IMG/VR virus record: IMGVR_UViG_3300028610_001991
From: a virus
Length of the DNA stretch: 64,000 bases
Direction: 5' to 3' (one strand)
Shown: piece after piece, positions 9,995-46,355 of the stretch
Position numbering within the stretch: position 1 is the stretch's first letter
Layout: each line of letters begins with the position of its first letter
Translations under genes and position numbers: made by a program
The notes under the pieces: model-generated
What the model was told of the DNA's origin: nothing
The model's input: only the letters and a program-made list of their open reading frames with translations
Databases searched by the model: none

Positions 9995-10027
9995 ATGTTC
10001 TCCTTTTATAAAGTTTGTAAAACTCTT

Positions 10028-10061
10028 TGTACTAAAGCTGACTTTCGCCAGCAAAGTCTCA
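10028..10061 (-). promoter_or_regulatory. conserved 33-34 bp motif, copy 1
   Basis: TGAGACTTTGCTGGCGAAAGTCAGCTTTAGTACA on minus strand. Confidence 0.7.
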
Positions 10062-16664: not shown

Positions 16665-16678
16665 ACTTTTGCTCCTTC

Positions 16679-16711
16679 TGTACTAAAGCTGACTTCCGCC
16701 AGTTTGTCTCA
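16679..16711 (-). promoter_or_regulatory. conserved 33-bp motif, copy 2
   Basis: TGAGACAAACTGGCGGAAGTCAGCTTTAGTACA on minus strand. Confidence 0.7.
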
Positions 16712-20997: not shown

Positions 20998-21204
20998 TCA
21001 TACACCCTCCAGGTTAGCCTTTAAAATTTCAATAATCCCCTTTACACCTCCACTAATACCGGACACATTCCCATTAATATGGGTCACGTTATGAACCTCA
21101 TTCAAGCAATCTGAGCATGGCAAGTCTTTATGTTTACAGTATAGGTGTGTTGGTTGTAATAATGTTAGCTGTCTTTTAATTCTCTCATCCATTTTATTTT
21201 TCAT
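20998..21204 (-). CDS. hypothetical protein
   Basis: GGAG RBS; Cys/His cluster. Confidence 0.6.
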   Translation of the reverse strand: MKNKMDERIKRQLTLLQPTHLYCKHKDLPCSDCLNEVHNVTHINGNVSGISGGVKGIIEILKANLEGV

Positions 21205-21281
21205 ACACTCTCCAGATTAGCATCTTATAGTTTATATCTATTTATCTAATAGAAGTCCATTAGACCACTATTACATAAATA

Positions 21282-21320
21282 GAAAGGGAGAGAAAGGATA
21301 AACTCTCCCCCTCCCTTTTA
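21282..21320 (-). terminator. intrinsic terminator
   Basis: Minus strand AAAAGGGAG...CTCCCTTTCTATTT after gene 21345-21599. Confidence 0.65.
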
Positions 21321-21344
21321 TCACTTAAGACTTAGTATCTAGTA

Positions 21345-21599
21345 CTATGCAGATACAGTCAGGACTTCGTTCTCTCCAAGTTTATCTATTTGTGTATCAT
21401 AGTTACCATCAGAGAACTCTTTTAGTACATCAGCATACCTAAGTATAGCTGCAATTTTAGCTTTACCTAAACTGAACCCACCTTTAGTAAAATTACCAGA
21501 GATACGTACTACAGGTGTACCGTTCATAGAATAGAACTTCTCTAATTTAGGCTCTATTATAGCAGGCTTACTTGACGTGGTTGTTTTAACAAGTTTCAT
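21345..21599 (-). CDS. small hypothetical protein (own promoter motif and terminator)
   Basis: AAGGAG RBS; FSLGKAKIAAIL motif. Confidence 0.75.
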   Translation of the reverse strand: MKLVKTTTSSKPAIIEPKLEKFYSMNGTPVVRISGNFTKGGFSLGKAKIAAILRYADVLKEFSDGNYDTQIDKLGENEVLTVSA

Positions 21600-21723
21600 G
21601 TTATGCTCCTTTTAAAAATGTATATGTTAATTATGATGAAAACATAGCGTCACCATAATAATAACCAAAGTCGTAATTGCTTACAAACAACTGAAGTATT
21701 GTTGTAATAATTGCTGCACTTTA

Positions 21724-21756
21724 TGTACTAAAGCTGACTTCCGCCAGCAAGTCTCA
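21724..21756 (-). promoter_or_regulatory. conserved 33-bp motif, copy 3
   Basis: TGAGACTTGCTGGCGGAAGTCAGCTTTAGTACA on minus strand. Confidence 0.7.
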
Positions 21757-22036
21757 AACCAAAGTTGACCATTGTTATCAACAACTTATGAACACTACTG
21801 GTACACTACCCCCATAGAAAAAGAGAGTAAAGTACAGTAAGTATATACATATAAAGAATAATTATAACATAATAACAGTAATATACACAGAGAGAGGAGG
21901 GAGGGGTACACATAAAGCCTACACTGATTTAGTATACTATACCTTAGTATAACCTATATCCATCCATACAGTTTATTAATATCTCCGGTATACCCATAAC
22001 CATCTATATTCTTATTAACATCTTATAAAAACATCC

Positions 22037-22187
22037 ATAGACAGCTTATAGACAACATGTGACTGTCTATAGATCAGCCTATAGACAGCTTATAGGCAGC
22101 TTATAAATAACCATAGATCAGCCTATAGACAGCTTATAAATAACCATAGATAGCTTATAGACAGCTTATAGACAACATACGACTGTC
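22037..22187. repeat. array of ~12 phased 10-12 bp direct repeats (consensus ATAGACAGCTT)
   Basis: Units start at 22037, 22048, 22069, 22081, 22092, 22103, 22113, 22125, 22136, 22146, 22157, 22168. Confidence 0.9.
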
Positions 22188-22435
22188 AACGCTAAGGGAA
22201 AAGCCGGTCAGCCGCCCCCACACCCCTGTCCTTCTGATCCCGCTATACCCTTACACTTTTTTTAGTGTTCAGCTGTAGATTAACCAATAGCTCAACCATA
22301 GTTCAGCCTACACCCTCCCTACCTTAGCATAAAAGGTAGAGAGGGAGATAAGCTTAGAGGAGGGAAGTATATTAACCGTTACTGTTATACTAACAGTAAG
22401 GTCATCTGTTATATAGTATATGTATTTTACCTGCG

Positions 22436-22680
22436 CTTTATGTACTATAGCTGACTTCCGCCGGTTTGTCTCAAACTGTAGCTCTACCGGCTATCAGCAG
22501 AAAATGATTCAACACGTCATTCTGCCGACTATCGGCAGTTTGCTGTGACACGTCATTTAGCCGCACTTTATGTACTATAGCTGACTTCCGCCGGTTTGTC
22601 TCATCCTTACGTCAATAACGTAAGGATGATTCAACACGTCATTCTGCCGACTATCGGCAGAATGATATGACACGTCATTA
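22436..22680 (-). repeat. tandem pair of ~130-bp modules (33-bp motif copies 4 and 5 plus hairpins)
   Basis: Motif at 22441-22473 and 22571-22603; shared TCATTCTGCCGACTATCGGCAG and ACACGTCAT elements. Confidence 0.9.
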
Positions 22681-22821
22681 TGGTCACTTCTAACATAAGC
22701 GTAAATAGAGTAAAACACACCTATTTATCCTGTATTTTGCTCTATTTATGCTTATAAGATGCTATTTAGCATACACTTAGCTACTATACTCTAATAATAA
22801 CAGCTTTAAGTCTATACTACG

Positions 22822-22998
22822 TTATAGAAAGATATCTATCTCTCTAATATCGTCCAGTATAATAGTATGTTTGTACCGTGGATGTATATAGCCTTTTTTC
22901 TTGTAATACCTCTTAAGTATCATTAACCTATCGGCCTGGATTATACCAATAGTCTCTTTACCCTTATTCTTAACCTCTATTATTTTGGTTAAAACCAT
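22822..22998 (-). CDS. 58-aa basic protein between the two module pairs
   Basis: AGGAGG RBS before MVLTKIIEVK. Confidence 0.65.
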   Translation of the reverse strand: MVLTKIIEVKNKGKETIGIIQADRLMILKRYYKKKGYIHPRYKHTIILDDIREIDIFL

Positions 22999-23040
22999 TA
23001 TACCTCCTGTTGTATTATCAGCAGTTATGATAAATAACCG

Positions 23041-23222
23041 CACTTTATGTACTATAGCTGACCTCCGCCAATTTGTCTCATCTTTACGTTAATAACGTAA
23101 TAATGCTATGGTACGTCATTCTGCCGACTATCGGCAGAATGATATGACACGTCATTTAGCCGCACTTTATGTACTATAGCTGACCTCCGCCAATTTGTCT
23201 CAAACTGTAGTTCTGCCGATAA
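23041..23222 (-). repeat. second tandem pair of modules (33-bp motif copies 6 and 7)
   Basis: Motif at 23048-23080 and 23170-23202; same hairpin TCATTCTGCCGA-CTA-TCGGCAGAATGA. Confidence 0.9.
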
Positions 23223-23440
23223 GTATATATAGTCATATCTTCATTTTGTATCGGTAATAATAGTTCGGTAATAACCTTATAGCCTTATAGTGCTATTATA
23301 CGAAAACGCCCCGTCTTCTTGCGTCCTACGTCCAGACCTCTCCCAGGTTGAGAAGGCTTTGATATATGTCAATAGTACGGCAACTATAAGATGTCAGATT
23401 CTATTTAAGACCTATGCGGATAACCGATAACTACTTTATA

Positions 23441-23902
23441 CTATGATAGATGAGCCAATAACTTATATTTTGCTTTAAAGTTTAATATAGTAGACCCGGG
23501 ATGTACATGCTTTTCTCTAAGTTCTGCTACCTGCTTACCAATCTTACCATATCCGAATACAATATCCCTTCTAAGCTTTTCTAGTTTTCTCGGACTAACA
23601 CCCTTTTCCTCTTGTCTGAGTAGATATCTCTCTTTATCTCTTTCTGTTTTTGCCCATATTATTTCTCTATACACTGTAGATAAAAGTGTTTTTAGTTTAG
23701 TCCCCCTGTGTGTTACATAACCCACAGGTTTAATATACACCCTTTTTATCCGTATCTTTTCCTGTTCCTTCTTTTCCTCAACTCGTGCTAGTCTGTCTGA
23801 TTCAATTAACCTTTGTGCATTCAGTACATTAATAGTCTCAATTGCTTTTTCTCTTGTACCTGCTGTTGCAAGTAACCTTACTAATGTTTCTCTAAAACTC
23901 AT
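23441..23902 (-). CDS. basic hypothetical protein
   Basis: GGAGG RBS; K/R-rich. Confidence 0.75.
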   Translation of the reverse strand: MSFRETLVRLLATAGTREKAIETINVLNAQRLIESDRLARVEEKKEQEKIRIKRVYIKPVGYVTHRGTKLKTLLSTVYREIIWAKTERDKERYLLRQEEKGVSPRKLEKLRRDIVFGYGKIGKQVAELREKHVHPGSTILNFKAKYKLLAHLS

Positions 23903-23922
23903 ACTTCCCTCCTGTTATTAAA

Positions 23923-24348
23923 TTATAAAATACCACCCTTTTTAAATGAATAATAGTTTTCCTCATTTACAGTTACAATTAAATGGTCTAAGAAGTTAAG
24001 CCCTATGTACTTTGCAGCCTTATTAACGTTCCTGGTAAAAGTTATATCCTCCTGTGATGGTGAAGCATCGTCAGACGGATGATTGTGGATTATCACGAAG
24101 TTACGAGCATTAACTTTTAGTAGAGGTATAAATATATCTGCAGGAGTACACGCTATTGTGTTATAGCCTCCAATAGCGATATCCTTCTTTATAATCACTT
24201 TATTCTTGATATTCATACCTATAACTACCATCTTCTCATTATACTCAAACTCACCCTTTACAAACTCCCTGACTGACTCCGGTGTCTTGATAAATGTGTC
24301 AAAGTTGTCGCTGCACTGCAAATAAAAGTATTTAACTTTAAATTCCAT
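23923..24348 (-). CDS. radC: RadC-like JAB/MPN domain protein
   Basis: E at start of domain, IIHNHPSDD.SPSQED, LDHLIV. Confidence 0.88.
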   Translation of the reverse strand: MEFKVKYFYLQCSDNFDTFIKTPESVREFVKGEFEYNEKMVVIGMNIKNKVIIKKDIAIGGYNTIACTPADIFIPLLKVNARNFVIIHNHPSDDASPSQEDITFTRNVNKAAKYIGLNFLDHLIVTVNEENYYSFKKGGIL

Positions 24349-29943: not shown

Positions 29944-30160
29944 AGGTTCGTTTTTATAGGGGGTCATGGTGAAACGTATCTAAAAATACGAAGGTTCGTA
30001 CTATAGGGGGTCATGGTGATTTATAGGAAGGTCGGGAAAAACGTATCTGAAAATATATCCGGTCTCTTTTTACTCTATAATGTATGTCCGGTCTTCTTTT
30101 ACTCTTTTTATAGAGGGTGGTCGAAAAAAGCGTATCTGAAAATATGGCGGGCACTACTGT
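29944..30160. repeat. cluster of imperfect direct repeats at the divergent strand switch
   Basis: TATAGGGGGTCATGGTGA x2, CGTATCT(G/A)AAAAT x3, CCGGTCT..TTTTACTCT x2. Confidence 0.8.
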
Positions 30161-30428: not shown

Positions 30429-30457
30429 TTGACAATACTGTAATTATGTTATATAAT
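30429..30457 (+). promoter_or_regulatory. consensus sigma70/sigmaA promoter
   Basis: TTGACA-17-TATAAT at start of plus-strand block. Confidence 0.9.
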
Positions 30458-45291: not shown

Positions 45292-45714
45292 ATGACCACA
45301 AAACATAAAGATTTTTTTAGAAACATATTATTCTTATGTGGAATAACATTAGATAATGAATATAATTTTATTTGCGCAAAATGCATTAGTAACCCTGACC
45401 ATGAAAAGTATAAAAAATGCCGTAACGAATATGGTAAAATTGACCCCTTAGCACAATTTTATTGTATCATAAATTACCATAAATACCAAGAGATAAACCC
45501 AGATATAAAATTTCAACAAGTAATGTTAATTGTAAAACAAATAGATAAAGCAATAAAAGATGGGCGAAATTTCGCCCATCTTTTAAGTCTAATAAATATA
45601 GTTAGGTTAGAATTGAAGCTATTAGATAACGGAGTATTAAACATAGAGCAGGCCACACATGAGTACAGAACAAAAATAATATCGATCTTAGATAGATTTT
45701 TAAGCAAATTTTAG
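45292..45714 (+). CDS. 140-aa hypothetical protein with Cys/His cluster
   Basis: Start MTTKHK at predicted +1; CAKC...H...C. Confidence 0.65.
   Translation: MTTKHKDFFRNILFLCGITLDNEYNFICAKCISNPDHEKYKKCRNEYGKIDPLAQFYCIINYHKYQEINPDIKFQQVMLIVKQIDKAIKDGRNFAHLLSLINIVRLELKLLDNGVLNIEQATHEYRTKIISILDRFLSKF
45554..45585. repeat. perfect 32-bp palindrome
   Basis: TAAAAGATGGGCGAAA|TTTCGCCCATCTTTTA. Confidence 0.95.
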
Positions 45715-45727
45715 AGAAATATACTAA

Positions 45728-45811
45728 AAAGTACTGGACAATTTTGTCCAGTACTTTACACATGAATCTAATTTAAGTAAAATCTACTGGACAAAATTGT
45801 CCAGTAGATTT
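45728..45811. promoter_or_regulatory. pair of inverted palindromic operator-like sites
   Basis: AAAGTACTGGACAA-TT-TTGTCCAGTACTTT and AAATCTACTGGACAA-AA-TTGTCCAGTAGATTT. Confidence 0.75.
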
Positions 45812-46018
45812 GTATGCTATTTCTTAAGTATTCAGCTATTTTTAGTAATAAATAACTATTTTAGTGAATTTTCTAGGGAAGATTTTTGGTACGCCATTGT
45901 TTCTCTTTTAATGTCTATGTAAATTTAAGGAATTCGGGTGTTTTCGGAATTTTGCAGAACTCCGTCACGGTATAGGCTAGACTACGGGTGGTTCAGCTGA
46001 ACTATGGTTCAACTACGT

Positions 46019-46147
46019 TTCATCTTAGTTCAACTATGTTCAGCAGATATTGAACTAAGATGAACTAAATACGTACCTAGATGATACGAAGTAGTACACG
46101 GTAAAAATCGAAGCGATTTTACCGTGTAGGGAAACGCTTCGCGTTTC
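46019..46147. repeat. cluster of three inverted repeats
   Basis: 15-bp stem 46019-46064, bulged 15-bp stem with 3-nt loop 46095-46128, 7-bp stem with 3-nt loop 46131-46147. Confidence 0.85.
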
Positions 46148-46326: not shown

Positions 46327-46355
46327 TTGACAATTTAACATATGTAGTATATAAT
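46327..46355 (+). promoter_or_regulatory. consensus sigma70/sigmaA promoter
   Basis: TTGACA-17-TATAAT ahead of the structural block. Confidence 0.9.

Follow-up and report, generated by a model that had tools for sequence, protein, structure and literature searches.

Minus-strand cassettes of predicted promoters and palindromes around a small orphan gene in an uncultured siphovirus-like phage

What kind of element is formed by the short repeated motifs and hairpin-forming palindromes that crowd positions 22436-23222 of this viral DNA, around a single small gene? The DNA is a window of 64,000 nucleotides, bases 27426-91425 of the 180,316-bp IMG/VR record IMGVR_UViG_3300028610_001991; positions are those of the window unless marked as genome positions. 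A first-pass annotation had described four motif copies in two tandem pairs around one small gene, and this arrangement is present as described; its broader claim, a modular array of promoter-type elements and hairpin-forming palindromes that standard annotation does not cover, also holds. However, the description followed the wrong strand: since every motif copy is co-oriented with minus-strand genes, the array must be read as the reverse complement. We consider it moderately probable that the array consists of minus-strand promoter-plus-palindrome cassettes, i.e., composite units similar to the PeSL (promoter early stem-loop) cassettes of T4-type phages, in which a stem-loop and an early promoter are repeated around orphan genes and form a recombination joint (Arbiol et al. 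2010, PMC2839356; Comeau et al. 2014, PMC4122927).

The promoter-like component is a 38-nt block on the minus strand. An alignment of its seven copies gives TGAGAC-N5-GGCGrArGTCAGC-TwTAGT-ACA, that is, a conserved TGAGAC, 5 variable positions, an invariant GGCG-A-GTCAGC, and then TwTAGT and ACA. A search of the full 180-kb genome for the 14-nt core, GTCAGCTWTAGTAC, returned exactly 7 perfect copies, every one of them on the minus strand. A 20-nt motif core is exact at 22436, 22566, 23043 and 23165 (n = 4) and has near copies with 1-3 mismatches at 10023, 16674 and 21719, for a total of 7 matches versus 0.02 expected by chance. The class as a whole can be described as a weak -35/-10 pair, GAGACA-17-TwTAGT, which a consensus scan reads as GAGACA-17-TATAGT in the four array copies; the 13 spacer positions from -25 to -13 are GC-rich and invariant among the seven blocks. 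It should be noted that the edges of the block are sharp, and that the flanks of the dispersed copies are unrelated.

The array lies within a leftward (minus-strand) gene block that extends from window position 1 to approximately 29800 and holds small genes together with replication genes. All seven promoter blocks have the direction of the leftward small genes, and each stands ahead of a ribosome-binding site (RBS). The four array copies are designated P1 to P4. Of the tandem pair that precedes the gene encoding a protein of 58 amino acids (aa), P4 (23165-23202, with GAGACA at 23201-23196 and TATAGT at 23178-23173) lies upstream, and P3 (23043-23080) has its predicted start near 23044, ~45 nt upstream of the AGGAGG-led ATG of this gene. 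In the second pair, P2 (22566-22603) lies upstream, and P1 (22436-22473) is directed into ~800 nt without an RBS-led open reading frame (ORF). The three single copies occupy short intergenic gaps immediately before RBS-led starts: the block at 21719-21756 is ahead of an 84-aa gene starting at 21599, that at 16674-16711 fills a gap of 44 nt and extends over the stop codon of the ORF before it, and that at 10023-10060 lies within a gap of 90 nt, before an ATG (9994) that is led by an RBS. This position and orientation is the behavior of a promoter, from which we infer promoter activity.

In the array, the block is the last part of a larger unit. We found three full units and one partial unit of a ~125-bp cassette (P1-P4 within 22436-23202), each full unit having, on the gene strand, the order box1 (AATGACGTGTCA), a 27-bp palindrome designated H, box2, a second palindrome (either one designated b or a decayed H), and the promoter. 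Along the locus, in the same direction, these begin with the partial unit (P4) and a full unit (P3), which are followed by the 58-aa gene, a hairpin whose arms are 25 nt long, and two further full units, with P2 and then P1; the ~800 nt without an RBS-led ORF come next, and then the next promoter copy with its gene. The 58-aa gene (22822-22998, minus) encodes a basic orphan protein (net charge ~+6) and has an AGGAGG a few nucleotides before its ATG; it is bordered by cassettes on both sides.

The palindromes are also as the first-pass annotation had described them, with some decayed copies in addition. Palindrome H, with 12-bp arms and a 3-nt centre, is perfect at 23116-23142, where its centre is ~+37 from P4 and ~-85 from P3, and again at 22639-22665, ~-85 from P2; a third copy, H' (22522-22538), keeps only the 7-bp core, with 4 substitutions on one arm abolishing the outer 5 pairs. 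P1 is immediately preceded by a decayed, H-like palindrome, H'' (22482-22502), centred near -55. At P4, a lone exact half-site of H, TCGGCAGAA (23211-23219, minus), has no partner arm, and its distance to P4 equals that of the proximal H'' arm to P1. Palindrome b, described earlier as an 11-bp stem (11-12 bp here), is perfect at 22601-22629, with 12-bp arms and the core TTACGT-N5-ACGTAA; it lies directly against P2, covering the initial 3 nt of the -35 element, and is centred near -48. The copy of b at P3, b' (23079-23105), contains two mismatched pairs, in one of which both bases have changed but do not pair. A 21-bp perfect palindrome with 9-bp arms and a 3-nt centre was confirmed at 22379-22399, ~+48 from P1. 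The genome as a whole contains 21 perfect palindromes whose arms reach 9 bp or more and whose loops do not exceed 8 nt, versus 7-12 in shuffled sequences, and 5 of the 21 fall in 22063-23142.

The boxes reported to be 36 bp apart were likewise found: ACACGTCAT has 5 exact copies, comprising two pairs at this spacing and one copy at 23147-23155 with a two-mismatch partner, and is present only in the array locus. Four of the five exact copies (ATGACGTGT; 22670-78, 22634-42, 22548-56 and 22512-20, minus, spanning 22512-22678) flank H and H', whereas the partner side of the fifth carries the variant ATGACGTAC (23111-23119, minus). Neither palindrome H, nor the palindrome with TTACGT-N5-ACGTAA, nor the ATGACGTGT box occurs elsewhere in the 180-kb genome. 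A separate observation is that in two units (22634-22678 and 22512-22556, minus) a 15-codon mini-ORF runs across H, with box1 providing the start ATG and box2 the final TGA in the same frame; it is probably untranslated, since it has no Shine-Dalgarno sequence. Readings of box plus palindrome as an integron attC site or as a REP/RAYT element (repetitive extragenic palindrome/REP-associated tyrosine transposase) were rejected by eye, there being no partner core site and no integrase.

The three full cassettes align box for box, and their identity is mosaic. The units upstream of P3 and P2 have a perfect 44-nt block (box1, H and box2) in common, then diverge, and then match again; the cassettes flanking the 58-aa gene repeat at a distance of 477 bp. 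If the copies were neutral products of slippage or unequal crossing-over, with no function beyond redundancy, their direct orientation, the identity of 89-92% between units and the decay of several palindrome copies would be expected. Conversely, neutral duplication does not readily account for a 44-nt box-H-box segment that is identical between units whose adjacent sequence has strongly diverged, or for the promoter blocks and promoter geometry kept within pairs, where the only change in a block is one at the 3' end of P1; we hold this explanation to be improbable. Under the reading as PeSL-like cassettes, the units were probably multiplied and homogenized by homologous recombination, as has been proposed for PeSL cassettes.

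The function that we propose for these cassettes is as follows. Each would end in a 38-nt promoter of a phage-specific class, and at the array locus this promoter would have been multiplied together with its upstream sites, producing two tandem pairs. P4 and P3 would drive the 58-aa basic orphan gene, and P2 and P1 would transcribe into an untranslated region bearing iterons. One palindrome overlaps the -35 element, and the other sits ~-85 from one promoter and, relative to the preceding promoter, at ~+37; any RNA that reads through them will also form stable hairpins at both.

This raises the question of whether the palindromes act in DNA or in RNA. Each is downstream of at least one promoter, and the predicted folds are strong (z = -4.1 and -5.9), with the hairpins dominating. 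A role in RNA, as stabilizers of 5'/3' ends, RNase III-type sites, attenuators or nut-like antitermination signals, would leave the promoters as promoters. It would draw on the fact that all the palindromes are transcribed and fold strongly, on the hairpin with 25-nt arms that directly follows the 58-aa gene (22695-22755, minus), on the linear boxes that flank H as boxA/boxB do in lambdoid nut sites, and on the PeSL stem-loops, which are terminators with a demonstrated attenuator role. In addition, 3/4 of the changes in H'' keep G-U pairing on the transcribed strand, although this is not significant (~5 in 16 by chance). Conversely, there is no U-tract after the hairpins on the transcribed (minus) strand, the one after the 58-aa gene included, and no terminator between the promoters. 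The outer stems have been lost through one-sided clusters of substitutions without compensation: the changes in decayed copies are one-armed (H') or two-sided and uncompensated (b'), a formal count found no compensatory pairs in the H copies, and no pairing measure exceeded that of shuffled sequences. A lone half-site is kept at P4, and Rfam has no match. On balance, we regard an RNA role as credible, although rather unlikely.

We tentatively prefer, as the foremost of several possible roles, that the palindromes act mainly as double-stranded DNA operators for dimeric regulators. This role is favored because of the identical 44-nt block, the lone half-site with its kept spacing to P4, the position of b over the -35 element, and a layout found elsewhere in the window, at 45728-45811. 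There, two related 30-bp perfect palindromes (core ACTGGACAA-NN-TTGTCCAGT) bracket a TTTACA-17-TAAAAT site (45755-45783), which looks like a classic two-operator promoter. A further palindrome of 32 bp is located at 45554-45585, within this second cluster of long palindromes (45554-45811).

Two other ideas about the hairpins, both raised by the first-pass annotation, fared poorly. The first takes them as promoters of the N4 or single-stranded DNA type, used by an injected virion RNA polymerase (RNAP) or on single-stranded DNA. The 3-nt centres, and one loop that reads GTA on the gene strand, would suit such promoters. N4 promoter hairpins have a stem of 5-7 bp with a 3-nt loop at a fixed short distance upstream of the start. 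The stems of the array are 12 bp, which would place a start 11-12 nt from the loop centre within the stem itself; moreover, 3/7 of the promoter blocks occur without any of these palindromes, and a genome search for a virion RNAP detected none. We therefore find this idea barely tenable.

The second idea concerned discrete structured RNAs of ~130 nt, possibly acting against CRISPR. The discrete units fail because there are no terminators between the promoters; transcripts would be nested rather than of unit length. As decoys of host CRISPR repeats (RNA anti-CRISPR (Racr) or solitary-repeat-unit type), the hairpin units would be represented by three transcribed copies that share the GC-rich hairpin CTGCCGA-TAG-TCGGCAG, to which the CTGCC...GGCAG stem of type I-F repeats has a loose likeness. 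However, in a comparison with 185,579 species genomes at large, the 17-nt core was hit 118 times, always singly and scattered, and never as an array; the Rfam CRISPR-DR families gave no match, there are no compensatory changes, and a perfect 27-bp dyad with spacings of 122-477 nt is unlike repeat units. A decoy function is thus very improbable.

The reading as promoter-plus-palindrome cassettes has to be weighed against several points that are unfavorable to it. The arms of 12 bp are perfect, longer than those of most operators, and certainly transcribed, which leaves room for a role at the RNA level. The 58-aa basic protein is a candidate ligand or regulator of the palindromes, but this role is a guess because the protein has no homologue (it matches itself alone among 5.8 billion proteins) and its AlphaFold model is of low confidence (a predicted local distance difference test, pLDDT, score of 62), too weak for a structure search. 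The comparative arguments rest on paralogous copies in one genome, as no relatives were found by DNA motif, neighboring proteins or terminase. Finally, 3/7 of the blocks, the three dispersed ones, have T in place of the critical A at -11 of the sigma-70 -10 element, and in the 16674 copy the sigma-70 geometry puts the start inside the Shine-Dalgarno sequence; on both grounds, host sigma alone is an unlikely reader of the block.

The best hexamer match of the block to the host sigma-70 consensus is 9/12. By comparison, three perfect 12/12 promoters, TTGACA-17-TATAAT, were found on the plus strand (30429-30457, 46327-46355 and genome 164226-164254), and their presence at other operons indicates that transcription of the host sigma-70 type is in use. 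We searched the phage genome for polymerases and sigma factors of its own. PF00940 (single-subunit RNAP) had no match in it, while the T7 positive control was recovered with E = 1e-110, and T7 RNAP as a query in tblastn and phmmer found nothing. Multisubunit RNAP domains, the sigma-70 region 2 and 4 models and TIGR02937 were absent from the genome, and the controls matched. All ORFs of at least 700 aa, scanned against Pfam or PHROGs (the portal ORF against PHROGs alone, where it matched a portal family), had no RNAP match. The giant ORFs encode, besides tail proteins, a tape measure protein of 5019 aa, and have no RNAP match in Pfam, PHROGs or PDB sequences. Since no phage polymerase or sigma gene was detected, host RNAP probably uses this class of block with the help of an early phage protein.

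Other promoter classes were compared with the block. With +1 set at the G of TwTAG, the invariant part spans -17 to +5, similar to T7-like promoters, whose conserved block of ~23 bp covers ~-17 to +6, but the conserved upstream TGAGAC does not fit, and no cognate polymerase was detected in the phage. The sigma-54 consensus has GG and GC elements at fixed positions, -24/-12 (TGGCAC-N5-TTGC); in the GGCGGAAGTCAGC stretch of the block, the distance from GG to GC is 13 nt versus 14 in this consensus, and sigma-54, sigma-28 and extracytoplasmic function (ECF) sigma readings were rejected by eye on spacing. A different set of repeats was observed at the head of the leftward block (29950-30150, minus), where three tandem copies of TTTTCAGATACG-N16-20-CTATAAA are likely to be early promoters of another class; one of them holds CTATAGTAC, as does the seven-copy motif.

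The untranslated region downstream of P1 contains, besides the 21-bp palindrome, a CU-rich hairpin, a G-cluster, 11-bp iterons in a phased array (22037-22200), and AT-rich DNA. The G-cluster, GGGGTGTGGGGGCGG (22195-22225, minus), has a GC content of 65% in a 35%-GC genome; lying past P1 and before the iterons, with its G residues in the non-template strand, it could favor R-loop formation. CU-rich tracts in the RNA (CCCUCC-type, similar to anti-Shine-Dalgarno sequences) were noted at 22305-22354 and 21885-21905 (minus), the former within a 13-bp hairpin. The 14-mer AACCATAGTTCAGC (22294-22307 and 45996-46009) is related to the iteron unit at 22109, with 3 matches versus 0.09 expected; it is common to this region and to a second repeat-rich untranslated region at ~45950-46080, and one DNA-binding protein may have sites at both loci.

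Could the array instead be the transcriptional part of a replication origin, its tandem promoters firing into the G-cluster, the iterons and the AT-rich stretch? The absence of an RBS-led ORF for ~800 nt after P1, and the presence there of the G-cluster (22195-22225), the iterons (22037-22200) and AT-rich stretches, are consistent with an origin similar to the primary origin of T7, in which a tandem pair of phage promoters, spaced by 75 bp, stands before the tiny gene 1.1, or to T4 oriF/oriG, which combine a middle promoter with an unwinding element. Nevertheless, no initiator gene was identified nearby, there is no cluster of DnaA boxes, the GC skew tracks the direction of transcription and marks no origin at the array, and the palindromes are left unexplained; we consider this possibility unlikely. 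A bolder version, which strikes us as quite unlikely too, would have the invariant spacer (-25 to -13) read by a phage factor unlike known sigma factors, activators or polymerases, and would make the array the module for both control and priming of a transcription-activated origin, gated by the 58-aa protein.

The phage itself has a genome of 35% GC, with an estimated completeness of 96% for the 180,316-bp record. It encodes a large terminase subunit (TerL), a portal protein, the 5019-aa tape measure protein and tail proteins, as well as a DNA polymerase, helicases and a clamp-loader-like ATPase. Because of this gene set, we regard it as a large, siphovirus-like (long-tailed) uncultured phage. 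Neither a tyrosine integrase nor ParA was found in its genome, and it is a virulent-looking siphophage with a 180-kb genome; a centromere reading of the array is weakened by the absence of ParA. AGGAGG ribosome-binding sites are strong and usual in this phage. As an observation on the tape measure ORF (genome 106186-121245), residues ~530 to 1940 match tape measure families, and the other ~3000 residues are without a match; an ORF of this size points to either a tail of extreme length or additional domains.

Searches for relatives of the phage found none. Exact and loosened motif patterns in IMG/VR returned chance hits only; a 20-base pattern of hairpin plus box gave chance hits in high-GC coding DNA of metagenomes, and another metagenome scan was empty. 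Blastn of the array locus against cultured phages found nothing, and Rfam and tRNA scans were empty. A database comparison of the upstream early ORFs showed those of the early block to be all orphans; the neighboring 153-aa protein matched itself alone among 5.8 billion proteins, and neither this protein nor TerL had relatives in viral contigs. A 259-aa early protein has homologues (at most 44% identity) in unrelated phages without the motif. Separately, the 17-mer CTGCCGATAGTCGGCAG was seen on five contigs of one metagenome-assembled genome of Limnoglobus (a planctomycete), with a sixth hit in another such Limnoglobus genome; this is probably a repeat within that genome, without relation to the phage.

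How does the array compare with known systems? The T7 phi1.1A/phi1.1B region, which is the primary origin of that phage, is similar in having two identical phage-specific promoters ~75-130 bp apart, before a tiny gene and a non-coding AT-rich stretch. However, T7 itself encodes the single-subunit RNAP that recognizes its promoters, an enzyme without a counterpart in the array phage, and the T7 region has no palindromes or iterons. Operators of phage repressors (the OR, OL and OD sites of TP901-1 CI, and lambda OR/OL) resemble the array in the spread of dyad sites over a few hundred bp around promoters, one of them over a -35 element, and in the small basic protein encoded within the region. 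The differences are that no repressor fold is recognizable and that the 12-bp arms are perfect; moreover, since no integrase or partition genes were found, control of lysogeny is unlikely. The iss (injection stop signal) region of T5-like phages is also large, untranslated, rich in direct repeats and palindromes, and located in the early block of a large siphophage (Davison, bioRxiv 10.1101/866236), but the repeats of the array carry promoters. In addition, no consensus DnaA box was found in 21000-24000, only three scattered one-mismatch sites, and the paired boxes that define the T5 region, where they lie inside inverted repeats, are absent.

By analogy, the array would be best filed as a PeSL-type composite cassette, the closest kind that has been described. 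The likeness consists of small cassettes of stem-loop and promoter, repeated directly among small orphan genes, flanking an orphan ORF and showing mosaic identity. The stem-loop is immediately upstream of the promoter, in the order box, H, box, palindrome and promoter, aligned in three cassettes. As to multiple copies, full cassettes flank one orphan gene, three promoter copies are without hairpins, and the mosaic blocks fit recombination. PeSL promoters are identical to the host sigma-70 consensus and have AT-rich DNA upstream. The array differs in that its promoter does not follow this consensus, being specific to the phage and having a spacer that is GC-rich and invariant, in that its stem-loops lack a U-tract or G/C-run features of terminators, and in that each cassette contains two different 27-bp palindromes and linear boxes, with the full cassette found at one locus only. 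The phage, moreover, is siphovirus-like and unrelated to T4. The array is likely to be a regulatory hub of a very isolated lineage of large siphophages, and its seven blocks are a clean, unusually information-rich class of predicted promoter, whose reader, once identified, could reveal a new way in which phages redirect the host RNA polymerase. On present evidence, this is a well-defined example of a known design rather than a new principle, and the layout of its cassettes would extend the PeSL idea, that of promoter/stem-loop units as gene-shuffling joints, beyond T4-like phages.

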